Source: a virus (Duplodnaviria > Caudoviricetes). From it: a stretch of 64,000 bases of DNA. This document shows, piece after piece, positions 31,302-47,056 of the stretch (its first letter is position 1; each line of letters begins with the position of its first letter). The position numbers and the translations under genes are program-made. The notes beneath the pieces are model-generated. The model worked only from the letters and a program-made list of their open reading frames with translations. It was not told where the DNA came from and ran no database searches. The stretch is taken from positions 32,001 through 96,000 of IMG/VR virus record IMGVR_UViG_3300033073_001045. One strand, given 5' to 3'.

Positions 31302-31982
31302 CTAGTGTCCTCCAACATGAAGAACCTGTCCAGTCAGACTGGATGAACGTTTATCCATGAGAAGTTCAACTAAATTTGCCACATCGTCTAAATCAAAAAG
31401 CCTTTGAATTATCTGACTTGATATTGCAGTTTGATCTCCATTTATAAGGTGTTTACGGGTAAGCCCAGTTATTATTGGACCTGGAGCTATACAGTTAGCC
31501 CTTATATTTGTATGCGAAAGTTGTTTTGCAAAACCCTTAGTAAAAGATTCTACTCCAGCCTTTGAAGCAGAATACATAGTTGCTTCATTGGCCATATGAG
31601 CGGCAAGACTAGATATATTTATTATTGCAGTGTGTTCTTCTGGATCCATGTTTGAAAGGAATGCCTGACATGAATTAAATACCCCATTTAGATTTGTATT
31701 AATGACATCATAAGCTTTATCTTCAAAAAAGAATCCAGCTGGTGTTGGCTCATATATGCCAGCACAATTTATTAATACGTTAACCTTTTTGCCAGCATCT
31801 AATATCTTTTTTGATATTTTGTACATCTGCTTTAAGTCACGAACATCAGCTATTTCTGTATCAAAATCTGGCTCATATTGAGGTTTATATAAAGATATTC
31901 CAAGAACATCATGGCCAGCAGAATGAAGTCTTTGCGCTATGTGCTGTCCCATGCCTGAACCAGATCCAGTTATAACTATCAT
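31302..31982 (-). CDS. short-chain dehydrogenase/reductase (FabG-like)
   Basis: TGxxxGMG, NCAG, NISS, YSASK and N.IAPG motifs. Confidence 0.92.
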   Translation of the reverse strand: MIVITGSGSGMGQHIAQRLHSAGHDVLGISLYKPQYEPDFDTEIADVRDLKQMYKISKKILDAGKKVNVLINCAGIYEPTPAGFFFEDKAYDVINTNLNGVFNSCQAFLSNMDPEEHTAIINISSLAAHMANEATMYSASKAGVESFTKGFAKQLSHTNIRANCIAPGPIITGLTRKHLINGDQTAISSQIIQRLFDLDDVANLVELLMDKRSSSLTGQVLHVGGH

Positions 31983-32632
31983 TCTGAACCGTCCGAATAG
32001 TATGGATTCTTTCTGTTATGGTACCAATTTGGAAGTGCGTATCTTACACCACTCGTTACCGCATCAACTTCATGAACATAAACATAATTTGATGGGAAGA
32101 ACAATATGGTTCCAGCCTCTGGCTTTAAATCAAGTCCTGCATGTGGAAATCTAAGATTACCGCCTTCATAATCGTCATTTAAATATAGTAATGCTGATAG
32201 AACTCTGCTACTTATACCGTGATCAGAGTGTGCTGGCAAAAATCCGCTTTGCTTGTATTTAAGGACATGCATTGTTTTTTCTCTAGACTTAATATTTTTT
32301 TCCGCATATGGATACAAAGAAAAATAATGTTTTAGTCCAATTTCTAATGCACCAAATAGCTCAGAAGATATGAAGTGCTGTTCTTTGTAAAATCTATCAG
32401 AAGCTGGAATATCTTCTGGCTTTGGCAAAAATTTTTGCCAACAAAAAACAGTTTTTTCTGGGCCACCATGATCGTAATCCCATGCCTTCCATTCTTGAAC
32501 AAATGCAGACGAATAATCTTGCGACTCTTGTCTTTTTATTTCAAGCTCTTCTATCTTGTCAATAATAAGCTGTGGATCATTTATAATACCATTGTATTGA
32601 ACTACTCCTAAAGCGAGTTGCTTAAACTCCAT
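31979..32632 (-). CDS. 2OG-Fe(II) oxygenase, prolyl-4-hydroxylase-like
   Basis: HSD...LYLNDDYEGG...FFPS...HEV..V.SG.R. Confidence 0.9.
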   Translation of the reverse strand: MEFKQLALGVVQYNGIINDPQLIIDKIEELEIKRQESQDYSSAFVQEWKAWDYDHGGPEKTVFCWQKFLPKPEDIPASDRFYKEQHFISSELFGALEIGLKHYFSLYPYAEKNIKSREKTMHVLKYKQSGFLPAHSDHGISSRVLSALLYLNDDYEGGNLRFPHAGLDLKPEAGTILFFPSNYVYVHEVDAVTSGVRYALPNWYHNRKNPYYSDGSE

Positions 32633-33175
32633 TTAGCACTCCTTAAAATCTGGATCGATAAATTCTTCTTGCGTTGATTGCATGAAGAGGGCTGTGTATC
32701 TATTTCCACTTTCAATTTTTGAAACACCATGTAAATATTCATAGTCATTTCCTGGGAAAAATATTGCTGAATATTTTTTAGGGCTGTGAACAAAATCTTT
32801 TTTAGGGAAATATATGTCGCCACCAGTATACTCATCATTTAAATATATGACAGAGCTATACTCAATAAAAGGTTCTTTCTCTATTGCATCTATATGTGGA
32901 TTTCCGCTCATTCCTGCAGACCATCCAGACCCAAACGACTTAGTCACAATAACATCTTTCTCGGTTTGAAAGAATTCTTTTTGTACTGCATTAGATATCT
33001 TTGCATACTTTCTTAAAATATCCATGACCCTTTTATTATAAGGGAATGCCGTTCCCCCGTTTCTATCTGCATAATAATCTGGGTACGGGTTTATTTCTGA
33101 TGGCCTAATAATTTCAGAGATAAGAATCTCTGCATCTTCTGGAGATATAAAATCTTCAATAATTTTTATCTTCAT
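32633..33175 (-). CDS. 2OG-Fe(II) oxygenase, prolyl-4-hydroxylase-like
   Basis: HID...IYLNDEYTGG...FFPG...HGV..I.SG.R; likely start ATG 33175. Confidence 0.9.
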   Translation of the reverse strand: MKIKIIEDFISPEDAEILISEIIRPSEINPYPDYYADRNGGTAFPYNKRVMDILRKYAKISNAVQKEFFQTEKDVIVTKSFGSGWSAGMSGNPHIDAIEKEPFIEYSSVIYLNDEYTGGDIYFPKKDFVHSPKKYSAIFFPGNDYEYLHGVSKIESGNRYTALFMQSTQEEFIDPDFKEC

Positions 33176-33822
33176 CCTAGTGGTACCCAACTTTGCTCAT
33201 AGTATCCTCCGCTTGAAATAAATCTAAGAGGTGTTACGTCGTAAGCAATGGTTATTCTATCCTCTTCAAATGGCCAGAGACCAATACTATGAGGATGTCC
33301 AGTTTCAGACAATATTGCTCTATTGTTTTTATTTACATTTTCAAATGGTTTATCATTATGAATCTTATAGTAGGTAGAGCTTGGCTCAGCATTGACACAA
33401 TAGTATCCATGGAAGTATGGAATGCCCTTTCCTTCTGAATGATCATGATAAGAATCACTATTCTCTAAATCAACATGATTTTTATTTCCTTCTGAGTTAA
33501 ACCATCCATGCAACATGAATTGCTCTTTTTCAAAATCAAGGCCATAATATTCGCATGCCTCAATTGTCATTTTACGCAAAGCCTTATATAGTGCATAAAT
33601 GTCTTCATTATAGAACTGAAAGATGTTGTAGAAGTTATCGATTCGCTGAGGGTTGTAACTGTTAAAGTAGTCTTTTGGTGCATTTAGCAATACATCTTTA
33701 CCTACACCTGGAACTTGTCCGTTCTTTAGCTCTTCCTTTTTGTTAAGCAAATATTCTTTAAGACCGATAAGATCATTATCTAGATATGCTTCAAAAAATT
33801 TATGAGGCTTATTATTTTCCAT
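33172..33822 (-). CDS. 2OG-Fe(II) oxygenase-like (cupin) protein
   Basis: GWFN...HDH...HGYYCV...HPH...RITIAYD. Confidence 0.7.
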   Translation of the reverse strand: MENNKPHKFFEAYLDNDLIGLKEYLLNKKEELKNGQVPGVGKDVLLNAPKDYFNSYNPQRIDNFYNIFQFYNEDIYALYKALRKMTIEACEYYGLDFEKEQFMLHGWFNSEGNKNHVDLENSDSYHDHSEGKGIPYFHGYYCVNAEPSSTYYKIHNDKPFENVNKNNRAILSETGHPHSIGLWPFEEDRITIAYDVTPLRFISSGGYYEQSWVPLG

Positions 33823-34652
33823 TAGTTTATTATCCTTGTTCTATTTAAATATCTTTCTCCGCCAATTTTGTCGGTTTCAGATTTATCTATTACATATGCT
33901 ATATCATCATTATTAAATGGAAGCTGTTTAATATCTATACCAAACAGCCCACGAACATTTTTATCATTCTCTTTAACAAAATCATTATATTTATGAGTTA
34001 AAGAAAATGGAACATATCCATGACGCTCAAGAGGGATTGTGTTATTTGTAAAAAGTTCTGTTGGTGCACAGAGGAGGTTGTAATGCTTATGATTTATATC
34101 TATAGACATCTGTTCCTCTTCTCCATAATACTTTAAATGAGTTGGATACCCCAGCCACTTTATATCAGAGCTTAAACAAAATATAAAATCCCTGTCAATC
34201 ATTTTAACTGGACTATAATCTTCTGATTTAGACTTTATAGCCTCAACCATAAATAAATTTTTGTTTTTGTATTCTAGTTTATGGTTACCAGATATTATAG
34301 TTTGATTATTGTATCTGACAGATTCCATTTTTTCTATAAGCTTTATGTCCCAGTCTTTAGACATATAGACGCCATCTCCACACTGCATAAAGTAATCACA
34401 CACTAGTATCCTTGACCCATCAAACTTATGAGCTATTGGACTTTTTATTGAATCCCACTTTGTGTGCTTATATATTATCTTTACATGGCTTGCATCTATA
34501 TTAAATAAACGAGATCTTTCTACATTATTTTGATCTATAACATAAAGGGAAAGTTTATTTTTTCCACTAGACTTATTGACAATATCAGACAGCATAGCAA
34601 TCAGATCTTTATTTTGAAAACTATACACAAATATGCCAATACTTTTATTCAT
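33822..34652 (-). CDS. GT-A glycosyltransferase resembling GT60/Gnt1 (divergent)
   Basis: IFVYSFQN, DYFMQ.....KDWD.KLI and YYGEE..MSI match the GT60 pattern; the DSH motif position reads GDG. Confidence 0.55.
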   Translation of the reverse strand: MNKSIGIFVYSFQNKDLIAMLSDIVNKSSGKNKLSLYVIDQNNVERSRLFNIDASHVKIIYKHTKWDSIKSPIAHKFDGSRILVCDYFMQCGDGVYMSKDWDIKLIEKMESVRYNNQTIISGNHKLEYKNKNLFMVEAIKSKSEDYSPVKMIDRDFIFCLSSDIKWLGYPTHLKYYGEEEQMSIDINHKHYNLLCAPTELFTNNTIPLERHGYVPFSLTHKYNDFVKENDKNVRGLFGIDIKQLPFNNDDIAYVIDKSETDKIGGERYLNRTRIIN

Positions 34653-35302
34653 TATAGAAGTGGTATCCAGTGCTGCTGCGGTGCGTTAGCCTCAATTAAG
34701 CTTTTTAGTGGCATTATGTCATATGCAATTGTTACTCTAGGACCTTCCCAGTCCCAATCTCCCATTGCATGCGGGTGGCCCATTTCAGAAACAATCATTC
34801 TATTGTTTTTATTATGGTTTTCAACCTGCTTATCAAATACTTGATAGTATGTAATGGAAGGCTCTGCATTTACAGAATAGTAACCGTGAAAATAGGGGGC
34901 ATAAGGGCCACCGTGATCATGCCAATCAAGCTTGCCAGAATGATTGTAATTAATATTAAACCAGCCCTGTACCATATACTTTTGTTCTTCAAAATTGACT
35001 TCATAATATTCACATGCTTCCTTAATCATGTCTGATAGAGATTTATATAGTTTATATATTCCATCATGATAAAACTGAAATACATTATACTCACGCCATT
35101 TTATTGTAGATACACTTGATGACGATAGCCAAGCGTCTTTTTGATTTACTGGAGTGATTCCTTTAAGGGTAAGATTTTCCATATTAGAATATTGAGTCTG
35201 TAAAAATGTTGCAAGATCACCTAAATCGTTATCTAGATACCTTTCAAAAAATTTATGATCTTTGCCGCTTGGTTTATTCAGCATCATCGGATTGTAATCC
35301 AT
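34652..35302 (-). CDS. 2OG-Fe(II) oxygenase-like protein, paralog of 33172..33822
   Basis: Shared HKFFE.YLDNDL, YN.FQFY, GWFN, HDH, FHGYY.VNAEPS and GHPH motifs; start ATG 35302 after AGGAG. Confidence 0.75.
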   Translation of the reverse strand: MDYNPMMLNKPSGKDHKFFERYLDNDLGDLATFLQTQYSNMENLTLKGITPVNQKDAWLSSSSVSTIKWREYNVFQFYHDGIYKLYKSLSDMIKEACEYYEVNFEEQKYMVQGWFNINYNHSGKLDWHDHGGPYAPYFHGYYSVNAEPSITYYQVFDKQVENHNKNNRMIVSEMGHPHAMGDWDWEGPRVTIAYDIMPLKSLIEANAPQQHWIPLL

Positions 35303-36059
35303 CAGATACTCCTTTTCTATAATTTTTCCTTTGCCATATATAATTTTTATAATATGCAAATATTGATATTCTTCTTCGCTCTTCTTTTATTTTATTTTCT
35401 TCTATACTATGTTCTGAGTAATCAATTTCTAGGTCCCAATCATCTCTTTTAATTGGTATTATTTGAAATATTGGCGTTCCTTTAGGTATCGTACCTATAA
35501 AATTTCTTTTTAAGAAAAAAGCAGTAAATACTGGAGTGTGCCATTTATCCGTATCAATTATCCCAGATAAGGTCGTGAATGGCAAGTCATGCCTATTCAT
35601 TGGATGGGTTACAAGAATTGAGTATCCAGGTGGGGTCTCACAGTACCAATTTACTTTCCATCCAAAATGAAGTGGATGATGTCCCGTTGGTACTGCTACG
35701 TCAATCATATTTCTTTTGTCTATAATCATGGCTTCACCATCCCACGTTAGAGTAGGAAAGCCACTTTCATCTAAATCAACATGAACATCGTAATCAAGCT
35801 TATACATATAGCCAGCAGTTAGTGTGTCGAAAAATGGCATACATAGCTTTGTACCAGCTGCGCTACCATCTGTTCCTCTATCATTTATTGGATGGAGCTT
35901 TGATATATTATTTGATTTTTGAAAACGAGAAAGTTTTCTATACCAATCTGGCAAGAACCTAATAGATGGCTCTGGTTCTGATAAATAATTATTATGCTCT
36001 GGATCAAAGTTGGTACCAAAGGTAGCGGGTGTAAACTTAATGATTAAATTATCACTCAT
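35274..36059 (-). CDS. conserved phage protein (DUF6065-like, possibly dUTPase-like fold)
   Basis: PEP...LPDWY, K.CMPFFD...AGY, TPPGYS, G.IDTD and IPKGTP..Q.IP.KR motifs. Confidence 0.6.
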   Translation of the reverse strand: MSDNLIIKFTPATFGTNFDPEHNNYLSEPEPSIRFLPDWYRKLSRFQKSNNISKLHPINDRGTDGSAAGTKLCMPFFDTLTAGYMYKLDYDVHVDLDESGFPTLTWDGEAMIIDKRNMIDVAVPTGHHPLHFGWKVNWYCETPPGYSILVTHPMNRHDLPFTTLSGIIDTDKWHTPVFTAFFLKRNFIGTIPKGTPIFQIIPIKRDDWDLEIDYSEHSIEENKIKEERRRISIFAYYKNYIWQRKNYRKGVSDGLQSDDAE

Positions 36060-36762
36060 TACATAGCCCATCTATTATTTCTTTTGAGGCGGTCACTTCC
36101 ATTTCGTACATATATGACCCCCTTTCTATCACTCCAACAGTTTCGGTCTGCATATGTCTTTTTGATTTAGTAAAATAAAAATCAATAAATTCTGGTTCCT
36201 TTATTCTATCATTTTCGTTAGACTTTGTAAATGACCCAGATCTTTCTATAATAAATAAAGAAGGATCCTGTATTGTAGATTTAATTTTAAATTTTACATT
36301 TTCGTCTATAACCCATGGGGTATATATTTTAAAACATCTATCTGAGATTATATTATCGTTATTAATATCATATTCATTTGGTGACGGATAAAACTGCCTC
36401 TGCCAAACTTTATCTACAGAATAGAATATTTCATTTATAGGTTGTGACTTAAATATTCCTAAGTGACCAAGTGGTGGATCTGCTATTTGAACTAAGATGT
36501 CTGCATAATTATAATACTCTAATATAGCCTCTGTGTCGGAAATTCTTTTTACCGAAGGCTTGATAGAAAAAAATGATGCATAAAGATTTACTGGTTTTAA
36601 TATACTTGATGAATATTGACTACTGTACTTTACTTGATGCCAGTCTGCCCATTTTGGAAACATATTTGAATACGCCATAATCTCTGCAAATGTCATTGTA
36701 CCCATCTTAGACCATGACTCAGACTCATATGGTGTCTTTAATATATTCTTCTTAGTTTTCAT
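36052..36762 (-). CDS. hypothetical protein in tailoring block
   Basis: 236-aa coupled ORF; FKIYTPW...GVIERGS weakly echoes its neighbours. Confidence 0.65.
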   Translation of the reverse strand: MKTKKNILKTPYESESWSKMGTMTFAEIMAYSNMFPKWADWHQVKYSSQYSSSILKPVNLYASFFSIKPSVKRISDTEAILEYYNYADILVQIADPPLGHLGIFKSQPINEIFYSVDKVWQRQFYPSPNEYDINNDNIISDRCFKIYTPWVIDENVKFKIKSTIQDPSLFIIERSGSFTKSNENDRIKEPEFIDFYFTKSKRHMQTETVGVIERGSYMYEMEVTASKEIIDGLCNE

Positions 36763-37475
36763 TTAAATGTTTTCTTAAACCACTTTTTTGTTCTATATCC
36801 ATTTTGAAAAACAGATCTTACTGAAAGTTGACTTGCTCTATTTTGAAGATCAGAATCTCTATCTTTATTTATTTCACTTTCCCAGTCGTCACGTTTAAAA
36901 GGTATTACTTGAACAATTGGTGTGCCTTGTTTTATGACACCCTTAAAGCCCTTCTCAACAAAAAATGATAGGTATCCGTCAGAAGGATATGTATCTGTAT
37001 CTATTAGTCCAGGAATAGCTTTTATAGGACTATAGTCTGCATGCATTGGTGATATAAAAAGAGAACTATACCCATCCTCTGTTTTTGCAAGCCACATTGG
37101 GTGGATTCTTAATACGTCATTATGAAAATATGGAGGTATAGGGTATTCAGATATTTGTTCTTTTAAATGATGTGCTAATAAAAATTTTTGAAATTCCATG
37201 ACGTCATTTGCAACTTCAAATTTAACCCTATCTCCAGTTGCATCTATATTCATATCCATTGGACAAAGTAAATAATAACCAGCGGCCATGGAGTCAAATA
37301 CCGCTTGACACTTTTTTACAGTAAGCAGCATGTTGCCATTATAAACATTATTATCATTATTTAAATAGCTTTCTTGTTTTTTCCACCATTCTGGAATATG
37401 CTTTTGAATTGGTATAGGCTTTGGAAATACCTCTGCTAAAAATCTATACTTGGGAATAAACTCTATTTTACTCAT
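36759..37475 (-). CDS. paralog of 35274..36059
   Basis: IPEWWK, TVKKCQAVFD..AAGY, GYSSLF..P, GLIDTD and IKQGTPIVQVIPFKR motifs. Confidence 0.65.
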   Translation of the reverse strand: MSKIEFIPKYRFLAEVFPKPIPIQKHIPEWWKKQESYLNNDNNVYNGNMLLTVKKCQAVFDSMAAGYYLLCPMDMNIDATGDRVKFEVANDVMEFQKFLLAHHLKEQISEYPIPPYFHNDVLRIHPMWLAKTEDGYSSLFISPMHADYSPIKAIPGLIDTDTYPSDGYLSFFVEKGFKGVIKQGTPIVQVIPFKRDDWESEINKDRDSDLQNRASQLSVRSVFQNGYRTKKWFKKTFK

Positions 37476-38041
37476 ATAACTGGAATCCATTTCTGATAAT
37501 ATTGTCTATGTAAATACTCTAATGGAGATACATTTATATATACTGCCTCAAAATCATTACTTATATTATTAAACATTGCTTTTTGAGATGAGTGAAGTAT
37601 CATCAACAATCCAGGCTCTAACAATACTTCTTCTCCATTTATAAATACTGTGTCTTTGTCAGAAGAAATTACATATAGCCCCCAAAATGTTGTTCTAAAG
37701 CTTGGTGACATATCTAGTTCTACCTGAAGTGGCAGTGCCTTTTTGTCGAGAATTCGGGCATATAGATAGGGAAAACTTCTGTCAAAATTTATATCAAATT
37801 CTTTAAATGTCTCTTTTATTGAAAAACAAACCTCTTTATATATAGAATATATTTCTTTGCTATACATACCAAAAAAATTAAATGTTTTATGATCTACAAG
37901 TGATACACGCTTGGCTTTTTTTGCAACATTTTTACCAAATCCATTACTAATATCCACAACGTGTTCAAACATGGAATCTACCATTTCGTTGTAATTATGC
38001 TTTAAAAAAGCATTATCAATTACACTAATTTTTCTTATCAT
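37472..38041 (-). CDS. degenerate cupin/oxygenase-like protein
   Basis: FNFF...IY..YK, FWGLY, EPG.L..L, N.SPL..L and QKWIPVI echo the 33172/34652 paralogs, but the metal-binding His residues are absent. Confidence 0.5.
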   Translation of the reverse strand: MIRKISVIDNAFLKHNYNEMVDSMFEHVVDISNGFGKNVAKKAKRVSLVDHKTFNFFGMYSKEIYSIYKEVCFSIKETFKEFDINFDRSFPYLYARILDKKALPLQVELDMSPSFRTTFWGLYVISSDKDTVFINGEEVLLEPGLLMILHSSQKAMFNNISNDFEAVYINVSPLEYLHRQYYQKWIPVI

Positions 38042-38660
38042 CTGGCTCCCAAATGCTAATTGAATGCCATGCTGCTGGCATTATAGGGTCTTTATATGGG
38101 GCATGCTCTGACTCCAAAAGAACTTGTGGCTTTACCCCACCCATTATTTTATCTAATTCTTCAGATTTTGACAAGTCTATTCTTTTCATAAATGATATAA
38201 GTTTAGTCATTTTCATTTGTAGATCAAAACCAGCTTGTGTATGGGCCCCACCCTGCCTTACCAAAACATTGTAATAAAACATAAACATTGAGTAGCCTAA
38301 TATAGCTAAAGAAGAATTTATTCTTTTTCTTCTTTTATCTGGTACAGTATAAAATCTATCACCAAATGCAATATGGCAGTCTTTCTTTTTATCATATTGT
38401 GCAAATATTATTGAAGCCCAGGAGTCTGGATACTCATTATTAATGAAGTTAGAAAATACTGCCGTTCCAGGTTTATGGTTTGGTGTAGAATAAACACACT
38501 CTATTGCTCTTGAACCATATCTATCATTAAGTATTGTCCATTGAATCCAAGAGCCAGAAAGGTAATCTGGGTACTTTCTAAAAGTTGGGAATATATGTCC
38601 CTTGTACCAGATTACCCTTCTAAACCCATACGCCAATATCTGCTTGATATTGTTTAGCAT
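38025..38660 (-). CDS. hypothetical protein (possibly GNAT-like)
   Basis: 211 aa; FYTVPDKRRKRI and HTQAG weakly resemble GNAT motifs. Confidence 0.55.
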   Translation of the reverse strand: MLNNIKQILAYGFRRVIWYKGHIFPTFRKYPDYLSGSWIQWTILNDRYGSRAIECVYSTPNHKPGTAVFSNFINNEYPDSWASIIFAQYDKKKDCHIAFGDRFYTVPDKRRKRINSSLAILGYSMFMFYYNVLVRQGGAHTQAGFDLQMKMTKLISFMKRIDLSKSEELDKIMGGVKPQVLLESEHAPYKDPIMPAAWHSISIWEPDDKKN

Positions 38661-38663
38661 TAA

Positions 38664-40022
38664 TTATGCTGGAGGATTGTTAGGATCAACAGGATTTTCC
38701 TGCTGAGATAGCTTCCATTGCTGATATAGAGTTTCAAGTGAAGCTGCTAGTGTTTGTGCAGAGTCAGTGATAACTCCATCTGCATTAAGGTCTAATGGCT
38801 GAGAGTCATGTACCAATGCATTATCTGTAAAGAATACGTCGTAAGGTTCTGTGTTAATTGTAATAACTAGTTCCTTGCCTTCTGAAACTCTAAGTTCTAC
38901 TATTGGCTGCCAATCTGCAAATGTAGGTGAATATACTTGATCTGATTCAAGTACTTCTGTAACATTAACAAACTTTGCAATTCCATCTCTTTTTATTAGA
39001 ATATAGTGAGATACTGAGTATTTATTTCCATTAATAACAATAACCTTATCAACAATATGAGCAGCAAGTGCTGTAATTGTTGTCTCATACTGTGTATTTA
39101 TTACTGGATTTTCTGATGACCACCCAGCAAAATATTCTGCTAGTGGAGTTCCGCTAGATAAATCTAGGCCATCAATATTAGCTGAATAAAGAACATCACC
39201 GACAGAAAGGTTATGTGCTAAAACTAATCCTTCTGGAACCTTTGAGCTAATAAGTGTATCTGCACCAATTGATTTAACTGGTGTGAATCCAAATGGAGTA
39301 AATCCGAATGGTGTAAATCCGAATGGCGTAAAACCAAACGGTGTAAATCCGAATGGCGTAAAGCCAAACGGTGTGAATCCAAACGGTGTAAATCCAAATG
39401 GAGCAAAACCAAATGGAACAAAGCTGAATGCTGTTGTTACGTTTACAGACGAAGCTGAAGTACCAGAATTACCATTAGCATTTGTTGCATAAACATTATA
39501 TGTTTGTTGTGTGCCCATTTCCTGTCCAACGCTTATAGATGTAGCTGATGTATCTCCAGCTTTACCATCTGAAGCAGTCCAGTGATAATTTGTAATTGCT
39601 TTTCCACCGCTTGCTGGGGCTGACCATGAAACAGAGTCTGTTCCAGCTGAGGGAGAAGATGCACTTGGTGCATTTGGTGTTGCAGGAACGGTTGTCGCTG
39701 TAACAGCACCTGATGCACTTGAAGCAACTGAGTTACCAGATGCATTTGAAGCAACTACTGTAAATGTATAACTTGTATCTGAAAGCAAACCAGTTACTGT
39801 AAGTGGTGATGAAGATCCAGTTGCTGTGAATCCGCCTGGTGACGATGTTACTGTATAAGATGTAGCAGCTGGTGAGTTAGCTGGCAAGCTAAATGATACA
39901 GTTACTGCACCATTATTATATGGTCTTCCAGTTCCAACATCTGATACAGATGTAATTGATGGTTGTTTTGGCTCAAGAAAATCATTTGCTCCTTGGCTCA
40001 TTCTACCTGCTTGTTTTGACAT
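38664..40022 (-). CDS. FN3-domain protein with (PFGFT)n repeats and C-terminal Hint domain
   Basis: Two FN3 domains (VTGLLSDTSYTFTVVASN; VSWSAP..GG..ITNY); 9 PFGF[TA] repeats; Hint blocks. Confidence 0.85.
   Translation of the reverse strand: MSKQAGRMSQGANDFLEPKQPSITSVSDVGTGRPYNNGAVTVSFSLPANSPAATSYTVTSSPGGFTATGSSSPLTVTGLLSDTSYTFTVVASNASGNSVASSASGAVTATTVPATPNAPSASSPSAGTDSVSWSAPASGGKAITNYHWTASDGKAGDTSATSISVGQEMGTQQTYNVYATNANGNSGTSASSVNVTTAFSFVPFGFAPFGFTPFGFTPFGFTPFGFTPFGFTPFGFTPFGFTPFGFTPVKSIGADTLISSKVPEGLVLAHNLSVGDVLYSANIDGLDLSSGTPLAEYFAGWSSENPVINTQYETTITALAAHIVDKVIVINGNKYSVSHYILIKRDGIAKFVNVTEVLESDQVYSPTFADWQPIVELRVSEGKELVITINTEPYDVFFTDNALVHDSQPLDLNADGVITDSAQTLAASLETLYQQWKLSQQENPVDPNNPPA
38805..39272 (-). 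other. Hint (intein-like) domain, 156 aa
   Basis: Block A SIGADTLI...G.V.A.NL.VGD.L.S; block B SVSH; blocks F/G VITINTEPYDVFFTDNALVHD followed by Ser. Confidence 0.8.
39282..39416 (-). repeat. 15-bp tandem coding repeat, 9 units (8 PFGFT + 1 PFGFA)
   Basis: Units such as tgtgaatccaaatgg and cgtaaaaccaaacgg vary almost only at synonymous sites. Confidence 0.95.
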
Positions 40023-40046
40023 ATTGTAGTCTCCCTTTAATTTCTA

Positions 40047-41900
40047 TTAAGCTGATAGGTCTCCAAAGACCAACCATCCGCTTGCTGTTTTCATTGCTGT
40101 TGCAACTGAGTTTGTAGTTCTTAATTTTAGACCTGGGGTTCCAACTACACTGTTAGTTGAAGCAAACTGTGCACCTGTACCTGACTCTTGATAAAAGTCA
40201 ATTGATTGACCTGTTGAATATCCTGTAGCAGGCAAAGTAATTGTTACTGCTCCAGTAAGTGGAACAAACTTATCTTGTTCTCCTGATGCAAGTGTTGCAG
40301 AGGATGAGATTGCTGTTGCAAAAGCGGTTATAGATGGAACTCCAGCTTTTACCTGTGTGCCATCTGAGAAAACAATACCAGATGATGGTGTAACTGTTGT
40401 TGCCTCAAATGCTCCAACCTTTAGAGCATCCATTGAGCCCTGTGCAAAATTAACTGTTGTTGTTGGTTCATCTGTTACACCCTTAAAAAGCTTCCACTTT
40501 CCATCAGATGTATCTTTAACTAAACCTTGGTGTGCATATGTTCCATCATTATATGATGCTACAAAGCCTAGGTCTACTGAGTTTGAATTGTTTCCTTCAC
40601 CTAAATAAATTACTGGATCAGCTGTTGTAAAGTTTGTTGTATTTACTGTTGTAGTTGTTCCAGATACTGTTAGGTTTCCAGATATTGTTAAATTACCAGA
40701 TAGTGTTTGAGATGCAGCATCTGTTTTTACTAATTTAGTTGTATCTGCAATTCCGTGTACATTTGTTGTATCTGCTTCGTGAGCTGATAGCGCAGTAGAT
40801 GCTGCAGATGTTGCTGCTGTCTGAGCATCTGATGCTTTACCATCTGCATAAGTTTTTGTTGCTAGTGCTGAAGTATCTGCAATTCCATGAACATTTGTTG
40901 TATCTGCTTCGTGAGTAGAAACTGCATTGTCAGCATAAGATTTTGTAGCAAGTGCAGATGTATCGGCAATTCCATGTACTGAGGTTGTATCCGCAGCATG
41001 TACTCCAAGTGCATCAGAGGCTGCAGTGATTGCTGCTGCTTCTGCATTATCTGCAGCTGTATCAGCATAAGACTTTGTAGCAAGAAGTGATGTATCTGCG
41101 ATACCATGTACTGAAGTTGTTGTTGCATTGTGTGTAGAGACTGCTCCAGTTGCAAAAGACTGAGCTGTAGTACCTACAGTATCTGCATAATTTTCAGCTG
41201 CTGTTATTGCTTCTGACTTTTTAGTATCTGCATAAGCTGCAGAAGATGTTCCTAAAGATGTAATTAGATTTTCTGCTATTCCATGCTTTGTGTCTGTGTA
41301 ATTCTTAGCTGCGTTTAGAGAGTCAGCAACATCTGCATCTGTTGCAAGAACTGATGTGTCTGCAATTCCGTGTACATTTAATGACTTATCTGTATGTATT
41401 GTTAGTGCAGCAAGATCTTGTGTTTGCAAATATTCTGCATACTCTCTGCTTGCAACCACTGTTAAATCAATTTCTGATGTTGGGACTTTACCTTGTGCGT
41501 TTAGTGATGCAACGCCATTAGCAGCTCCACGATCATCCTGTGGGATATATGTAGCATCTGCTGTATTTTGTATTGCAGTTTCTCTTGCGTCTACATAAGA
41601 CTTAAGTGCAATTACATTTGAGTCTACTGTAATTTCAATTGTATTTGTGCCGTCATTGTATGACTTTGTGAGTCCAGCTCCCAATGAAAGGGCATTATTA
41701 ATAGCATCCTGTGAGATTTCGCCGATAGCAACATCTGAGTTGTTAGCGTATGAAAGAGCAGTCCAGGTGCTTGTTCCGTTACCAAACTTAAATAGATTTG
41801 TGTCTGTTTCAACACCCATTTCACCAGCTGCTAGAACTGGATTTGTTGTGGACCACTGTGAAGCAGTTCCTCGTCTTACTTGAATTCTTACTGTTGCCAT
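40047..41900 (-). CDS. fibre protein with Mtd/hyaluronidase-type N-terminus and His repeats
   Basis: RIQVRRGTASQW...NPVLAAGE.G.ETDT..FK.G.G; five H-x7-HGIADT repeats. Confidence 0.8.
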   Translation of the reverse strand: MATVRIQVRRGTASQWSTTNPVLAAGEMGVETDTNLFKFGNGTSTWTALSYANNSDVAIGEISQDAINNALSLGAGLTKSYNDGTNTIEITVDSNVIALKSYVDARETAIQNTADATYIPQDDRGAANGVASLNAQGKVPTSEIDLTVVASREYAEYLQTQDLAALTIHTDKSLNVHGIADTSVLATDADVADSLNAAKNYTDTKHGIAENLITSLGTSSAAYADTKKSEAITAAENYADTVGTTAQSFATGAVSTHNATTTSVHGIADTSLLATKSYADTAADNAEAAAITAASDALGVHAADTTSVHGIADTSALATKSYADNAVSTHEADTTNVHGIADTSALATKTYADGKASDAQTAATSAASTALSAHEADTTNVHGIADTTKLVKTDAASQTLSGNLTISGNLTVSGTTTTVNTTNFTTADPVIYLGEGNNSNSVDLGFVASYNDGTYAHQGLVKDTSDGKWKLFKGVTDEPTTTVNFAQGSMDALKVGAFEATTVTPSSGIVFSDGTQVKAGVPSITAFATAISSSATLASGEQDKFVPLTGAVTITLPATGYSTGQSIDFYQESGTGAQFASTNSVVGTPGLKLRTTNSVATAMKTASGWLVFGDLSA

Positions 41901-41942
41901 TTTATCTCCTAGTTTTTAATTATAGCATTTATTAACTTTTAA

Positions 41943-42281
41943 TTAGGCTATTTCGCCTGAATCAAAAATCATTGATGCTTCTTCTGTTGATGGTGTGCCC
42001 CCATCTGCGAATTTTGTGGCAGTGGTAACAACACCATTTGCCTGAACTGTATAAACTGGTTGACCATCATAATCAATAGCCAGCCCAATATCCATAAAAG
42101 ATATACCGCTTACATCTGGAATCTGTGAAACAAGAGCTATTGGCTCCCATGTTCCATTGATGTATATCTCTAATTGATTTGAGGAAGAATTAAATGCTAC
42201 AGGAGTTGACCCTAGCGTTATCTGGTTGCCCTCTACTACAAGGCCATTTTTTACTCTAAAATTTTTATCTGTTGTTGCCAT
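41943..42281 (-). CDS. small virion-associated protein
   Basis: MATTDKNFRVKNGLVVEG N-terminus shared with the next ORF. Confidence 0.7.
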   Translation of the reverse strand: MATTDKNFRVKNGLVVEGNQITLGSTPVAFNSSSNQLEIYINGTWEPIALVSQIPDVSGISFMDIGLAIDYDGQPVYTVQANGVVTTATKFADGGTPSTEEASMIFDSGEIA

Positions 42282-42349
42282 TTAAGTTCACATATCCCCT
42301 AATTGTTTTGGTGGGGTTTTGAAAGGACCCCAAACCTTTTATTTAATTA

Positions 42350-43597
42350 TTAGTCACCATATGACATAAGTGTTCCAGAAACAATTATCTCTGTTCCATC
42401 ATTATGTGTAGGTGATACCTTAAGTTCAATATTATTGCCGTTCATTCCAGCTGTAATATCTCCCAAAATTCCATTGGTGGTTACAATTCCATATTCTGAA
42501 ATTGCAATATTATTTGAGTTGTCTCTTGTTAAAAGAATCTCAGATACCTGTGAGTTGGCTCCGTTTCTCATTCTAACTAAGAACTTAGCAGATGCACCCT
42601 TGTTGTGATTCCATGAACATGCCACAACTTCGCTACCTGTATTAGCGTAAGCATATGATGCAATTTGATCTGTCATCCAGCCAATTGAAACTTCTGTGAA
42701 TTGTGTGTCTCCAGAAGTTAGGCTATTTACAGCATTATCAGTATATGTAGCTGCTGCTGTCTGTGCCGCATTAGCCTTATTAGTTGCATCTGTTGACGCT
42801 GTAGCTTCTGCTGCTGTCTGTGCAGCTGATGCGTATCCCTGTGCTGCTGTATCAAGATCTGAAATTTCTTGGTTTACATAAGTTGTATCTGCTTTAGTTG
42901 CAACTAAATTAGCAACATCTGTTGCATAATTTGGGTTATCTGCAATTGCTGCAGCCAATTCATTAAGTGTATCAAGAAGTGCTGGTGCTCCAGAAACAAG
43001 CGCTGCGACTTCCTGGTCTGTGTATGCATTAGCATCTGAAATTGCTTCTGATTTAGCAGTTGCAATTGCTGAATTACGTGCTGAGACTTCATTTGTAATT
43101 GCTGTTGAAATTGCTGAGTTACGATCTGAAACTTCATCTGAAATTGCAGATGAAATTGCATTATTTCTATTTGTAACTTCTGTTGATATTAAACCATCTG
43201 CATAATTTTCTGCATTTGACTGTGCATTATTTGCTTTAGTTGTTGCATCAGAAGCTGCAGTACTTACTGCATTGCTTGCTGCAGAATCAGCATAAGTTTG
43301 TGCACTTGCAAGTGCTGCATTTGCTTTATTTGTAGCATCTGTTGCTGCTGCAGATTGAGCAGCTGAAGCAGATCCATATGAGTCAAAAGTATTTGCATTG
43401 ACTGTGAGGTTTCCAGCACCATCTACGTTAAATACATTTGTATCAACAGATTTAACAAGAGTTGCTCCACCAACAAGGTTGAGAATATAGTTATCTCCGC
43501 CTGTTTCTGTAAGTATATTTTGGCCATTGATGGTACCTGTTGTACCTTCTACAATAAGACCTGATTTGATTCTAAAGTTTTTTACTACCGTTGCCAT
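42350..43597 (-). CDS. coiled-coil fibre/decoration protein
   Basis: MATVVKNFRIKSGL; DAT.KAN.A repeats; APALLDTLNELAAA motif. Confidence 0.75.
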   Translation of the reverse strand: MATVVKNFRIKSGLIVEGTTGTINGQNILTETGGDNYILNLVGGATLVKSVDTNVFNVDGAGNLTVNANTFDSYGSASAAQSAAATDATNKANAALASAQTYADSAASNAVSTAASDATTKANNAQSNAENYADGLISTEVTNRNNAISSAISDEVSDRNSAISTAITNEVSARNSAIATAKSEAISDANAYTDQEVAALVSGAPALLDTLNELAAAIADNPNYATDVANLVATKADTTYVNQEISDLDTAAQGYASAAQTAAEATASTDATNKANAAQTAAATYTDNAVNSLTSGDTQFTEVSIGWMTDQIASYAYANTGSEVVACSWNHNKGASAKFLVRMRNGANSQVSEILLTRDNSNNIAISEYGIVTTNGILGDITAGMNGNNIELKVSPTHNDGTEIIVSGTLMSYGD

Positions 43598-43622
43598 ATT
43601 TATGACTCCTCTTGCTACCTAT

Positions 43623-44174
43623 TTATATTTTTACAGCTGTTCTGATAAACCTTGCAGATATATCAGTACTTACTGGTGCCACTACAAGACTAATTATACC
43701 TGAATTTTCTTCAAATGTATAACTAAATAAACTGTTATTGGTATTTGAAACAATATCTGATTCTGAAACGTGTACATTCATACCATCTTGAACTGCAGAT
43801 AATGTACATGTGTAAAATTCTGCACCTCTTGTTATCTGAAGTCTATACTGTACACTTCTCCATACATCTATTGCAAAAGAGTCAATAGATGTTGGATTTT
43901 CTATACCATTAACAGTAAGATCGTTATTGCCATCCAGGCCAAGCAACTCTGAAATATTATCAGTATTATTTGATAAACCATCTACTAGTGTTGCTAGCTC
44001 ATTAACCTTATATGTTATTGTTGAGCTATCTGATGAATTTGTTACTCCAATAACATTTTCTATTGCCTCTATAGCATCATTTACATTCTGGTGCTGCTGG
44101 GCATGACCAGATAATGAGTCAGTTGCTTCAGGGTTTGAAAGGTTATCTTTTTCTACAGGAAATGTTGTTGTCAT
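43623..44174 (-). CDS. virion-associated protein
   Basis: HAQQH.N.NDAIEAIE motif; C-terminal domain similar to that of 42350..43597. Confidence 0.7.
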   Translation of the reverse strand: MTTTFPVEKDNLSNPEATDSLSGHAQQHQNVNDAIEAIENVIGVTNSSDSSTITYKVNELATLVDGLSNNTDNISELLGLDGNNDLTVNGIENPTSIDSFAIDVWRSVQYRLQITRGAEFYTCTLSAVQDGMNVHVSESDIVSNTNNSLFSYTFEENSGIISLVVAPVSTDISARFIRTAVKI

Positions 44175-44221
44175 TTTCCCTCCTTGTGGTGCATCTTATA
44201 TATGTAATTATACACTACATT

Positions 44222-47056
44222 TTATTGCTGCTGTGATGATTTCCATTCTTGGTACAGTTGCTCTAATGATGTTGCCAGGCTTTGACTGCTTGAGCTTATT
44301 GCTCCTGGTGTTTGTGCATTAAACTCATGTGAGTCGTGAACAATAGCATTGTCTGTAAAAAATACATCGTACGGCTCTGTATTAATTGATATAACCAAAT
44401 CCTTTGATTGTTGATGCCTGAATTCAAGAATTGGCTGCCAGGCATCGTACAAAGGAGAATAAATGCTATCTGTTTCAAGTACGTCATATACTTTTACAAA
44501 CTTAACTTCATCATTTCTCTTTACTAAAATATAGTGAGAAAGTGAATATTTATTTCCATTTATAATTATAACCTCATCAACTATTCTTGCAGATAACGAC
44601 ACAATAGTTGTTTCATAGTTTGTATCTATGACAGGATTTTCTGCCGACCATGATCCTAAATATGAAGAAAGCGATTGTCCAGATGTTAGGTCTAGGCCTT
44701 CTATATTTGCTGAGTATAATACGTCTCCAACAGAAAGGTTATGTGCTAAAACTAATCCTTCTGGAACTTTAGATGCAACTAATGTATCTGCACCAATTGA
44801 TTTAACTGGAGTAAATCCAAATGGTGTGAATCCAAATGGTGTAAAACCAAATGGTGTAAAACCAAATGGTGTAAAACCAAATGGTGTAAAACCAAATGGT
44901 GTAAAACCAAATGGCGGAATATAACAAGCATTTGGTATTCCAAGCAAAGAAATAATTTCTGCGCTAGATAGATTTGGATTAGATGTGGTGCCAGTTATCA
45001 TACTGTAACCAGTTCCAGTATTAGGGTAGGCACCTTGACCACCATTTGCAGTATATGCTCCATAATAGTTACCACTAGGTCCATGACACATTACGTATAT
45101 ATTATATCCTGGAGCCTGATACTGATATCTATTAATACTAATTCCAGTTGGGAAACTTATATATCTTGTGTCATATGCAGTTCCAGCAATTGGTGACTGT
45201 GAAACAATTTGTCCAGCTAACCCAGGATCTGATGTTCCAGTATTTTGATTTGTAGAAAGTGTCCAATCGCCATATGTTCCATCAGCGGTTGTTGAGCCTA
45301 CATAATTTGGCACGTACTTATAAACAACTGCTGGCTCTTGATAAATATATGAGCTAACACTAACTGTAACTGGTAGATCTGCTTGCTGCACTGAATATGT
45401 TCCAGCTGAAGGTGTTTGACTAGCAATCTTGCCAACTAATGAATTGTTTGATGTTCCAGTTCCAGCTGCATAGTAAATAACATAGTTAGTTCCATTATAT
45501 GCGCTTTGAGATCCAACAAAATTTGGAATAGTTACTGAAACTGGAGGATTTACTGTAGCAGTAGCATATCCAGATGATGCTACTGGATTTGATGTTCCAG
45601 CAGAGTTTGTTGCAGTAGCAAAAGCACGATATCTTATTCCATTTTCAACATCGCTAGCATCAACAGTATATGATTGCGGTGACGTACCATTTCTTAGTTC
45701 AACACCATCTGAAATTGATTGTGGTACTGAACCAGCTTTAGCAATAATCTTTACATTATATGATGTAGGGTTATTCTCCCAACCACTTGTTGATGCCGTA
45801 ATTGTGTCTCCAGCATATACTTCTCCAGTTGGAGACAAGAATGCTGTTCCGTTTGCTGGTATTTTATATGCAGATGTAAATACACCAGAATTTGAATCCC
45901 AATAATATTCTTGTGTTGGATTTTCAAGTGTGATGGTTGACGGTGTTCCTTGGAATCCACTTGAGGTTCCATATATTCTTACTTTCCATGGACCAGACTC
46001 AACTCCTGCTTGATAGCAAGTTATATAGCTTGATGTGGAATTTATTCCTGTCATTGATACTGGACCAAAATCTGATCCGTCTGGCCATAATGAATATATC
46101 TCATATCTTGTTGGAGTTATATTATTTAGTGACCATTCAATTTTACCCGCATATTGATCATATAGTCCAGTTGCAGTTATTGTTGCAGTTACAGATGGCT
46201 TATTTGGAAGAAGATCAAGGATATCTTTGCTTGATCCAGTTCCAGTAAATGTAAAGTTTTGATTTGCTGTAGCCCAACGCCACCACTCTAATGCTTGACT
46301 TGTATTATTAAATGGTTGAACAGATATGCCAAGGGTTGTCTTGCCAAATAAAAATGTAGGGTCTGGCGATCCAAAATCTTTGTCATAAAGATTATTTGTT
46401 TTTCCATTTATTGTTATTGTTTCCGCTGGTATTCCTGGACCCTGATATGTTACATAATATCCATCAGCACCTTCTGAAACATCCCAGAAAAATCTTATCT
46501 TTCCATTTAAATATCCGCTTCCATCTTGTTGAACAAAAGCTGTTGAATTTGCTATTCTTTGTGGTGGGAGTGGAGAGCTATCAATAGATGCGTGTACTGG
46601 TTCACTATCTGTTCCTCCAGTAACTGCAATAACTGTACATTTAATAAAATATCCAACCTCATCTTTTGTTAATATATAACTACTAGATGTTGCACCAGAA
46701 ATATCTAGCCATGTTGTTATTGTTTTATATCTTGTTGGTACATATGAGCTTCCGTTTTCTTGAAACTCCTCAACTCTTGAATTATATCCCTTTGACCATT
46801 GATATTTATATGAGTCTGGCTCAATTGCCCACGTTCCATTACTTACTGATACTGTTTGTCCAGCTCCATATCCAAATGATCCAGCAGACCAAGTAAATTC
46901 TGGAGCAGTAATATTTGATTGTCCTGAGTAAAAGTCAACCCATGCTGAGCCATTCCACATTAAAGCTTTTTTAGCAGACTTCCATGAGCCACCGTCAAAA
47001 ATGTTTAATTTTTTAGGACTATTCCAGCTTGAACCATCAAATATTTTAAATGACAT
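44222..47056 (-). CDS. multi-domain Ig/FN3/PASTA-like protein with (PFGFT)7 and C-terminal Hint domain
   Basis: IFDG.SW repeats; Ig-like GTW...SYKYQW; two PASTA-like units; same C-terminal module as 38664..40022. Confidence 0.85.
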   Translation of the reverse strand: MSFKIFDGSSWNSPKKLNIFDGGSWKSAKKALMWNGSAWVDFYSGQSNITAPEFTWSAGSFGYGAGQTVSVSNGTWAIEPDSYKYQWSKGYNSRVEEFQENGSSYVPTRYKTITTWLDISGATSSSYILTKDEVGYFIKCTVIAVTGGTDSEPVHASIDSSPLPPQRIANSTAFVQQDGSGYLNGKIRFFWDVSEGADGYYVTYQGPGIPAETITINGKTNNLYDKDFGSPDPTFLFGKTTLGISVQPFNNTSQALEWWRWATANQNFTFTGTGSSKDILDLLPNKPSVTATITATGLYDQYAGKIEWSLNNITPTRYEIYSLWPDGSDFGPVSMTGINSTSSYITCYQAGVESGPWKVRIYGTSSGFQGTPSTITLENPTQEYYWDSNSGVFTSAYKIPANGTAFLSPTGEVYAGDTITASTSGWENNPTSYNVKIIAKAGSVPQSISDGVELRNGTSPQSYTVDASDVENGIRYRAFATATNSAGTSNPVASSGYATATVNPPVSVTIPNFVGSQSAYNGTNYVIYYAAGTGTSNNSLVGKIASQTPSAGTYSVQQADLPVTVSVSSYIYQEPAVVYKYVPNYVGSTTADGTYGDWTLSTNQNTGTSDPGLAGQIVSQSPIAGTAYDTRYISFPTGISINRYQYQAPGYNIYVMCHGPSGNYYGAYTANGGQGAYPNTGTGYSMITGTTSNPNLSSAEIISLLGIPNACYIPPFGFTPFGFTPFGFTPFGFTPFGFTPFGFTPFGFTPVKSIGADTLVASKVPEGLVLAHNLSVGDVLYSANIEGLDLTSGQSLSSYLGSWSAENPVIDTNYETTIVSLSARIVDEVIIINGNKYSLSHYILVKRNDEVKFVKVYDVLETDSIYSPLYDAWQPILEFRHQQSKDLVISINTEPYDVFFTDNAIVHDSHEFNAQTPGAISSSSQSLATSLEQLYQEWKSSQQQ
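44333..44800 (-). other. Hint (intein-like) domain, 156 aa, second copy
   Basis: SIGADTLV...SLSH...VISINTEPYDVFFTDNAIVHD followed by Ser. Confidence 0.8.
44810..44914 (-). repeat. 15-bp tandem coding repeat, 7 units (PFGFT)
   Basis: Five consecutive identical tgtaaaaccaaatgg units plus two variants. Confidence 0.95.

Follow-up and report, generated by a model that had tools for sequence, protein, structure and literature searches.

Genes for phage proteins ending in a repeat and a predicted Hint domain are coupled to a downstream enzyme cassette

Why should a phage place a row of enzyme genes directly behind a protein that ends in a short peptide repeat and a putative self-processing domain? 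The question is raised by a locus in a 64,000-nucleotide (nt) stretch of viral DNA (Duplodnaviria; Caudoviricetes), which is called the window here and covers bases 32001-96000 of the 104-kb IMG/VR virus record IMGVR_UViG_3300033073_001045, estimated to be 94% complete. The locus contains two proteins with a C-terminal repeat and Hint domain, protein A (P0001) and protein B (P0002), and a cassette of eleven genes behind protein A (Table 1). An earlier reading of these letters alone (the sequence-only reading) had proposed that the Hint domain cleaves itself off and that the eleven genes tailor the repeat left at the new C-terminus. Here the family of these proteins and its gene neighbourhoods were followed across viral genomes. 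Repeat-Hint genes are coupled in both directions to two of the cassette genes, U38, which encodes a divergent GNAT-superfamily acyltransferase-like protein, and X37, which encodes a degenerate oxygenase-like protein.

Proteins A and B share their C-terminal module. The N-terminus of protein A matches the Pfam fn3 family with 34.3 bits, and that of protein B starts with Trp/Lys-rich strands, which are followed by Ig/FN3/PASTA-like units (PASTA below the Pfam threshold). These N-termini are unrelated. Protein A then has nine PFGF[T/A] units at residues 203-247 and protein B has seven PFGFT units at residues 715-749, in both cases followed by PVK and a serine (Ser251 and Ser753), and the modules after the repeats are 67% identical. 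The common module described by the sequence-only reading was therefore recovered in both proteins. In the DNA, Tandem Repeats Finder gave a 15-nt period for both arrays, with 9.2 copies and 80% matches at 39279-39416 for protein A, and 7.2 copies and 95% matches at 44807-44914 for protein B. The units of protein A differ mainly by synonymous codons, indicating that selection acts on the peptide.

What is the domain behind the repeat? Its identity is visible only at the profile or structure level and not from a single sequence. When the window proteins were searched singly against Pfam, PHROGs and, by phmmer, the PDB, no Hint match was obtained. In contrast, a profile of 50 family sequences searched against the PDB placed the bacterial-intein-like (BIL) domain of C. 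thermocellum (2lwy) first with an E value of 3.4e-9, followed by inteins (several with E < 1e-4) and the Tetrahymena BIL2 domain. Pfam Intein_splicing was matched individually by 12 of the 50 members. The AlphaFold2 model of the Hint domain built with the alignment reached a pLDDT of 90.8 and a pTM of 0.85, whereas the single-sequence model (pLDDT 35) was of no use. Foldseek matched the Hint model best to BIL2 (6y75), the DnaB mini-intein and 2lwy, with target-normalised template modelling (TM) scores of 0.71-0.79 to 6y75 and 2lwy and a probability of 1.00. The invariant or nearly invariant positions are Ser1, S86-x-x-H89, E142-P-Y-D145 (with the block F Asp) and H155-D156-S157, and Cys1 replaces Ser1 in distant members. 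Profile, model and residues together identify the shared module as a Hint fold of the BIL type with its catalytic positions in place, which bears out the Hint call made from the sequence alone.

The domain departs from a canonical intein in its fixed C-terminal position, its lack of an endonuclease and its variable N-terminal partners. Its terminal residue is Asp, not Asn, and the Ser at +1 is conserved in the subfamily with a Lys/Ser junction (the slash marks the junction here and below). Hint domains that end in His-Asp always keep this Ser and a short conserved tail, so splicing onto a short extein is as open as simple cleavage. Two other candidates were rejected. A Hedgehog-type protein does not fit, because the Hint core is followed by a tail of 3-45 amino acids (aa) and no sterol-recognition region is present. 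A Peptidase_S74 chaperone does not fit either, because proteins A and B have no PF13884 match.

The two window proteins belong to a large family. In an exhaustive phmmer search, 127 representative metagenomic clusters were found to carry this Hint domain at the extreme C-terminus. Most members have 1-8 residues between the end of the Hint domain and the stop codon (0-14 across the wider family); the tail measures 3-4 aa in most distant relatives, versus the predicted helix of about 45 aa in the clade of the window. The 40-60 residues preceding the domain are nearly always a low-complexity aromatic/Pro/Gly repeat, and PFGFT, FFPP, PPYDN/YGNYGN, NPGF, APPADPP, poly-Pro, GAFGAF and GFYHGF types were found. 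The N-terminal parts vary as well, with PASTA in 13 of 50 members, FN3 and others. The main subfamily has the Lys/Ser junction and a His-Asp-Ser end, followed by an S-x-x-[IV] tail or, in the clade of the window, by the longer helix. Members without the Lys end in Tyr-Asp, Tyr-Asn or His-Asn, and their +1 residue varies. With tblastn, protein A matched nothing but a weak Cys-type Hint in jumbo phages of Erwinia. In the cultured jumbo phage pEa_SNUABM_16 of Erwinia, gp112 (L004:4963-6405), a 'virion structural protein', has collagen G-X-Y repeats and a Cys1 Hint domain at its end (SG/CIVFG ... VHN/T). Locus L037 has a Cys1-type repeat-Hint gene (SFTPNL/CFVVGT ... VHN/I) upstream of a Ser-type Hint gene, and therefore both chemistries coexist in one genome.

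By the terms of the sequence-only reading, its proposal would fall if repeat-Hint genes and the enzyme block were not associated in genomes. They are associated in more than 100 viral loci, where Lys/Ser-type Hint genes are followed by U38 and, within a few genes, by X37, despite changing neighbours, N-termini and repeats. Forty close viral loci have the entire region in identical order, which says little on its own. Nine distant members (P0014, P0029, P0055, P0095, P0023, P0036, P0039, P0068 and P0046) are 27-41% identical to the window proteins and carry different repeats. The same enzyme families lie directly downstream of them, and their neighbours elsewhere are partly different. A scan with a degenerate pattern added 36 loci, all ordered Hint, U38, X37 within 1-3 genes. 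The reverse scan, which started from X37, gave 44 loci, and a repeat-Hint gene and U38 were present upstream in all 36 with enough upstream DNA. When 15 contexts with Hint identity below 60% were compared pairwise, homology was found for gene -1 in 46% of the pairs, for gene -2 in 13% and for the N-termini of the Hint proteins in 34%; the value near 100% for gene +1 is circular, because the contexts had been chosen for U38.

The neighbourhood also varies with the junction residue. U38 is adjacent in 49 of 62 contexts with Lys at -1. The other 13 are of a type called HintB, in which a gene for about 183 aa comes next instead of U38; where enough downstream DNA was present, a second Hint gene and then U38 appear 4-5 genes on. 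All six contexts without the Lys are without U38. The Cys1 Hint protein P0111, which lacks such a repeat and served as a control, has no cassette. Locus searches seeded with P0023, P0046 and P0111 gave nothing useful. These results indicate that the Hint genes and the U38/X37 cassette are coupled in both directions.

Which partners are constant? The prolyl-hydroxylase-like oxygenases, the glycosyltransferase (GT) and the short-chain dehydrogenase/reductase (SDR) are each absent from some loci, and the invariant members are U38 and X37, which by themselves form the minimal cassette (L088, L092-94). DUF6065-like proteins and putatively active X-type oxygenase-like proteins are likewise variable additions. 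Genes for proteins like prolyl 4-hydroxylase (P4H) are usual and not universal, and the GT and SDR genes are confined to some clades. In loci of the L046/L050 type, a conserved protein of about 181 aa is encoded between the P4H-like gene and X37; it occurs in many distant cassettes and has no match to window genes or to families.

The eleven genes behind protein A are as tightly packed as had been claimed. The first starts 3 nt past the stop codon of protein A, and the gaps range from +3 to -20 nt. One bigger overlap (86 nt at 35274-35359) depends on a TTG start at 35359. The Atlas record of this protein begins at residue 20, and therefore the start of the 34652 gene would lie near 35302 with an overlap of about 29 nt; the TTG start is probably wrong.

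Among the products of the two core genes, orthologs of U38 matched Acetyltransf_1 in 4 of 25 cases (best 1.9e-4) and Acetyltransf_7 in 2 of 25, all below the Pfam threshold. They conserve a P-x-x-R-R-x-G motif, which is blurred in the clade of the window (GNAT motif A is R/Q-x-x-G-x-G/A), and seven homolog clusters were named GNAT by JGI. No PDB match by profile and no PHROG family was found for the U38 orthologs. X37 is homologous to the X family of 34652 and 33172 (probability 99) and has lost every conserved His. Against PHROG its orthologs gave nothing but one sub-threshold match (phrog_19058, E 0.0067, in 1 of 24 orthologs). Since U38 has no PHROG family and X37 has one marginal match, the isolated phages in the PHROG library lack the core.

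For the other cassette genes, the sequence-only reading had named four 2-oxoglutarate (2OG)-Fe(II) oxygenases plus a degenerate one, two DUF6065-like paralogs, a GT60-like glycosyltransferase, an SDR and two unknowns. Among the oxygenases, 31979 and 32633 are paralogs of the 2OG-FeII_Oxy_3 type with the HxD...H...R motif intact in both, and H135/D137/H187/R197 of 31979 are kept in 22 orthologs. The Pfam family of 31979, PF13640, also includes non-prolyl hydroxylases. The degenerate one is the His-less 37472 (X37). The X family aligns with an annotated cyanophage 2OG oxygenase (hhalign probability 84, E 7.6e-6) and has an Atlas feature score of 0.96 to viral PF13759 clusters and no Pfam match. 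The resemblance of 34652 and 33172 to the viral 2OG-FeII_Oxy_5 type thus stands with moderate support only. The DUF6065-like paralogs are strong as members of phrog_7084 (E 1.5e-44 and 9.2e-38); their relatives carry recorded DUF6065 matches, and their own PF19541 scores (21.8 and 24.7 bits) are below the cut-off of 26.6. As to the glycosyltransferase, PF11397 was found in 6 of 12 orthologs of 33822 (best 1.6e-4), the window protein itself, at 11.3 bits, stays under the cut-off of 21, and the Atlas leads are viral GT2/PF11397 clusters (0.97). With these leads and no DxD, a GT-A/PF11397-like identity is weakly supported. The SDR call was right, with 31302 being FabG-like. One of the two unknowns, 38025 (U38), appears to be the divergent GNAT-like protein, and 36052 has no assignment. 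Searches of the X, DUF6065-like and GT alignments as profiles against the PDB also found nothing.

Table 1. Positions of the repeat-Hint proteins, the cassette genes and the neighbouring fibre genes in the window
Feature	Position	Strand	Remarks
Repeat-Hint protein A (P0001, 452 aa)	38664..40022	-	Two FN3-like domains, 9 PFGF[T/A], PVK/S, Hint, helical tail of ~45 aa
15-nt tandem array encoding (PFGFT)n, protein A	39279..39422	-	Synonymous variation keeps the peptide
BIL-type Hint domain of protein A (157 aa; predicted)	38802..39272	-	Ser1 (aa 251), S-x-x-H, EPYD block F, VHD/S end
Tail after His-Asp, protein A	38667..38801	-	Begins with Ser(+1); predicted helix of ~45 aa in the clade of the window
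Repeat-Hint protein B (P0002, 944 aa)	44222..47056	-	7 PFGFT, PVK/S753, Hint domain and tail as in A
U38, divergent GNAT-superfamily acyltransferase-like	38025..38660	-	Invariant neighbour of Lys/Ser-type repeat-Hint genes
X37, degenerate oxygenase-like	37472..38041	-	Second invariant cassette member, without conserved His
DUF6065-like / phrog_7084, paralog 1	36759..37490	-	PHROG
U36	36052..36762	-	Conserved in the wider clade of the window
DUF6065-like / phrog_7084, paralog 2	35274..36071	-	PHROG
X-family protein, 2OG-FeII_Oxy_5-like	34652..35359	-	H147, D148, H149, H158, H197 conserved
GT-A-like glycosyltransferase candidate	33822..34652	-	PF11397/GT2-like leads; GDG in place of DxD
X-family paralog of 34652	33172..33822	-	46% identity
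P4H-like 2OG-Fe(II) oxygenase	32633..33190	-	phrog_61 1e-13; H99-x-D101, H154, R164 conserved
P4H-like 2OG-Fe(II) oxygenase	31979..32632	-	2OG-FeII_Oxy_3 (PF13640) 59.3 bits vs cut-off 27; H135-x-D137, H187, R197
FabG-like SDR	31302..31982	-	
Collagen-like fibre with Peptidase_S74 chaperone domain	30208..31269	-	PF13884 58.5 bits; rival hydroxylase substrate
Mtd_N-type fibre	40047..41900	-	Directly upstream of protein A; arrangement frequent in relatives
Second Mtd_N-type fibre	47065..48876	-	Directly upstream of protein B

The locus sits in a virion module. Nearly all genes between 2945 and 53418 are on the minus strand, and this block includes portal, protease, major capsid-like, tail and ribonucleotide reductase (RNR) genes; the repeat-Hint genes lie within it and adjoin the Mtd_N fibres. 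With virion genes around it in a nearly complete virus record, the element is phage-encoded, as had been assumed. A WhiB-family gene is present outside the window in the same genome (G000:C1:6285-6458; 46.7 bits, above the cut-off). It indicates an actinobacterial host, and the phage therefore probably infects an actinobacterium. At least eight studies contain near-identical DNA, in metagenomes of freshwater, estuaries, lakes and wastewater, and no isolated phage matched the region in megablast. Among contigs compared from four runs, short contigs from two metatranscriptome runs fall on the gene of protein A, which is not proof of transcription, and stretches without contigs carry no meaning. 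A promoter and terminator scan of the region found signals only at the level of shuffled sequence.

Two of the fibre genes contain repeats of their own. The Mtd_N fibre upstream of protein A has five motif copies near 40846-41008, which resemble T-S-V-H-G-I-A-D-T-S-x-L-A-T-K-x-Y-A-D and have an 87-nt period in Tandem Repeats Finder. A 45-nt tandem repeat of 2.3-2.8 copies is found at 43034-43159 on the minus strand inside the fibre-like gene 42350-43597, and homologs of this gene come after the enzyme cassette in distant relatives.

What could the cassette do for the repeat-Hint proteins? We consider it moderately probable, judging from sequence and models, that freshwater phages, probably those of actinobacteria, conserve this locus as a maturation module in which the cassette matures the repeat-Hint proteins. 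The substrates would be virion-type adhesins or fibre-accessory proteins, built from a variable FN3/Ig/PASTA part, a repeat, an invariant Lys and a C-terminal BIL-type Hint domain. Late in infection, cassette proteins would recognise the constant part, that is the Hint domain and the Lys junction, with U38 and X37 as the likely recognisers. The neighbouring repeat would then be modified. Its Pro residues may be hydroxylated by the P4H-like enzymes, an amine such as that of Lys(-1) may be acylated by U38, and in the clade of the window a sugar may be added to the repeat by the GT-like protein. Ser1 of the Hint domain would turn the Lys-Ser bond into an ester, and the domain would be removed in one of two ways: cleavage would make the modified repeat the new C-terminus, whereas splicing would join this repeat to the tail that begins with Ser(+1). 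The Hint domain would thus be a handle by which the protein is folded, recognised or assembled and which removes itself.

Several observations weigh against this interpretation. P4H-like genes are missing beside several Pro-rich repeats (L088, L092-94, L107/L109), and the composition of the repeat, including its Pro content, does not cleanly predict the P4H-like or other enzyme content. The GNAT, Oxy_5, DUF6065 and GT assignments all come from sub-threshold or lead-level evidence. Lys(-1) and U38 covary, which suggests an action of the GNAT-like protein at or next to that Lys and could equally be a lineage effect. The contexts are not fully independent, because these are all uncultured aquatic phages with some wider synteny in common (RNR, Mtd_N fibre, collagen-like gene). 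Cyanophage S-RIM44 and haloarchaeal viruses have related enzyme sets without accompanying Hint proteins. Finally, collagen-like genes, whose products are classical P4H substrates, are often only a few genes away.

This last point leads to the alternative that the enzymes have other targets. The Hint domain may aid folding or assembly and remove itself, in functional analogy to the Peptidase_S74 chaperone or to collagen C-propeptides, and the enzymes may act on the collagen-like fibre, on other virion proteins or on host molecules, so that their adjacency reflects a shared late-operon layout. The S74 domain of the collagen fibre in the window occupies the same position as the Hint domain, collagen-like genes accompany the cassette in many loci, and the collagen-repeat protein of the cultured Erwinia jumbo phage has its Cys1 Hint domain (VHN/T) without such a cassette. 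The role of phage P4H has been called 'cryptic', and P4H-like genes are abundant in aquatic viromes (PMC9301287). However, U38 and X37 directly follow the Hint gene even where the upstream genes and the N-terminal domains differ, and the presence of U38 tracks Lys(-1) at the Hint junction. Scanning in reverse from X37 led to the Hint gene every time, and no collagen-sized gene is found near the cassette in L053, L082-86 and L101. We regard action on other targets as unlikely, at a level that keeps it worth weighing.

A different outcome of the Hint chemistry would be true splicing, in which the Lys-ended repeat is joined to the Ser-initiated tail and no new C-terminus arises. The cassette would then control or exploit the timing of splicing, for example as a conditional maturation that depends on oxygen or 2OG. 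The Lys/Ser subfamily always combines His-Asp with Ser(+1) and a conserved S-x-x-[IV] or longer helix, the Foldseek matches are splicing-competent mini-inteins and BIL domains, and Asp-terminated inteins have been reported to splice. In most members, however, the tail to be joined has only 3-4 residues, with a range of 0-14 across the wider family. The non-Lys members with their Tyr-Asp, Tyr-Asn or His-Asn ends and varied +1 residue do not fit either, and no intein-free homolog with a continuous Lys-Ser junction was seen, though none was sought. We hold this splicing reading to be decidedly unlikely.

More doubtful still, by analogy with known Hint reactions, is that the Hint domain and U38 together form a protein ligase. 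U38 would use the Ser1 ester of Lys(-1) instead of acyl-CoA and move the entire adhesin, together with its modified repeat, onto an amine. This amine might belong to a Lys in a fibre or capsid protein or to the cell wall, to which the PASTA domains would give access, and the His-less X37 would be a recognition subunit. Such an enzyme-assisted covalent attachment in phages, similar to that of Hedgehog and BUBL, would be categorically new if true.

The sequence-only reading had also considered a pathway like that of ribosomally synthesised and post-translationally modified peptides (RiPPs), in which each PFGFT unit would be a core peptide, to be tailored and set free as a small modified peptide. 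The identical tandem units, kept at the peptide level, and the tailoring-type neighbours (oxygenases, GNAT, SDR and GT) resemble such a pathway, but no dedicated protease, no leader or follower and no cleavage sites between the units are present, the repeats differ wildly among relatives (FFPP, PPYDN, NPGF, GAFGAF, poly-Pro), and the carriers are FN3/PASTA proteins of 452-944 aa in a virion module beside fibres, which makes this reading very improbable. It is scarcely credible that the Hint domain is a selfish insertion of the BIL or mini-intein type without a phage role, next to unrelated auxiliary metabolic genes. Inteins are common in phage genes, and a DNA-repair or 2OG-linked role has been ascribed to multi-copy cyanophage 2OG oxygenases (PMC3037559, PMC2984593). 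However, this domain has no homing endonuclease, its site at the C-terminal end directly behind a repeat is constant across about 127 clusters whose host-protein domains differ, and it is strictly coupled to U38 and X37 both ways.

How does the proposed maturation module compare with known systems? The sequence-only reading knew of no described system like this one, and the literature search agrees, giving no description of repeat-Hint phage proteins or their cassette. DUF6065 was found in no paper, and the matches in phiCbK, CBB and a jumbo-phage review concern ordinary inteins only. Profile and fold place the domain in the Hint superfamily, nearest to the BIL domains, with 2lwy as the best match. 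Like these, it is small, endonuclease-free and part of variable surface-type proteins, with an N-terminal nucleophile, a block B His and a penultimate His. Unlike these, it has Ser1 and a terminal Asp in place of Cys and Asn, stands at the extreme C-terminus after an aromatic/Pro/Gly repeat, and is phage-encoded and coupled to an enzyme cassette. The Hint fold is also shared with the BIL2 domain of Tetrahymena BUBL (6y75) and with the Hedgehog autoprocessing domain (1at0, 6tyy). In BUBL and Hedgehog proteins the Hint (thio)ester hands the upstream polypeptide to a Lys amine or to cholesterol. The phage proteins have no ubiquitin-like domain and no sterol-recognition region, and only they have a GNAT-like partner. 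Peptidase_S74 is likewise a C-terminal self-removing domain with a Ser nucleophile, found in phage fibres and endosialidases; its fold and family are unrelated, and self-removal in the repeat-Hint proteins is a prediction. In Nup98, Phe-Gly repeats lie directly upstream of a Ser-dependent self-cleaving domain. This offers an analogy, although the fold is different, the protein is eukaryotic and there is no enzyme cassette.

The enzymes of the cassette have partial counterparts elsewhere. In Chlorella virus PBCV-1, a prolyl 4-hydroxylase occurs with virus-encoded Pro-rich repeat proteins as its substrates (Eriksson et al. 1999, cited in PMC9301287). This combination of a viral 2OG-FeII_Oxy_3-type enzyme with viral Pro-rich repeat proteins is shared with the window; however, PBCV-1 is a eukaryotic giant virus without a Hint domain, a core of GNAT-like protein and degenerate oxygenase, or operon coupling. 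Skp1 hydroxyproline glycosylation by PhyA and Gnt1 (PF11397/GT60) recalls the clade of the window, where a P4H-like oxygenase gene lies beside a PF11397-like GT-A candidate. In contrast to Skp1, the GT candidate here has a sub-threshold signal and no DxD, most cassettes have no GT gene, and the substrate is an unrelated one. The 2OG blocks of T4-like cyanophages (S-RIM44 gp160-gp163) contain DUF6065-like and Oxy_5-like homologs downstream of tail-fibre genes, and relatives of the DUF6065-like proteins also occur in haloarchaeal tailed viruses. In S-RIM44 (L045, 98740-117366) a giant tail fibre is followed by two Trp halogenases, a DUF6065-like gene and several 2OG oxygenases. The Trp halogenases take the place of U38, X37 and the repeat-Hint protein, none of which is present there. 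Multi-copy cyanophage 2OG oxygenases are still without substrates (PMC3037559).

Compared with these systems, the repeat-Hint proteins form a new and widespread Hint/BIL subfamily with an unusual pairing of Ser1 and terminal Asp and a fixed C-terminal architecture of repeat, Lys and Hint domain. To our knowledge, there is no earlier case of a Hint protein with dedicated, co-inherited enzyme partners. The module offers candidate substrates for viral prolyl hydroxylases and for 2OG oxygenases of the cyanophage type. If the ester is passed to an acceptor, as in BUBL and Hedgehog proteins, virions could be assembled or decorated covalently by a new route, and the module might also yield a compact tool for protein ligation.

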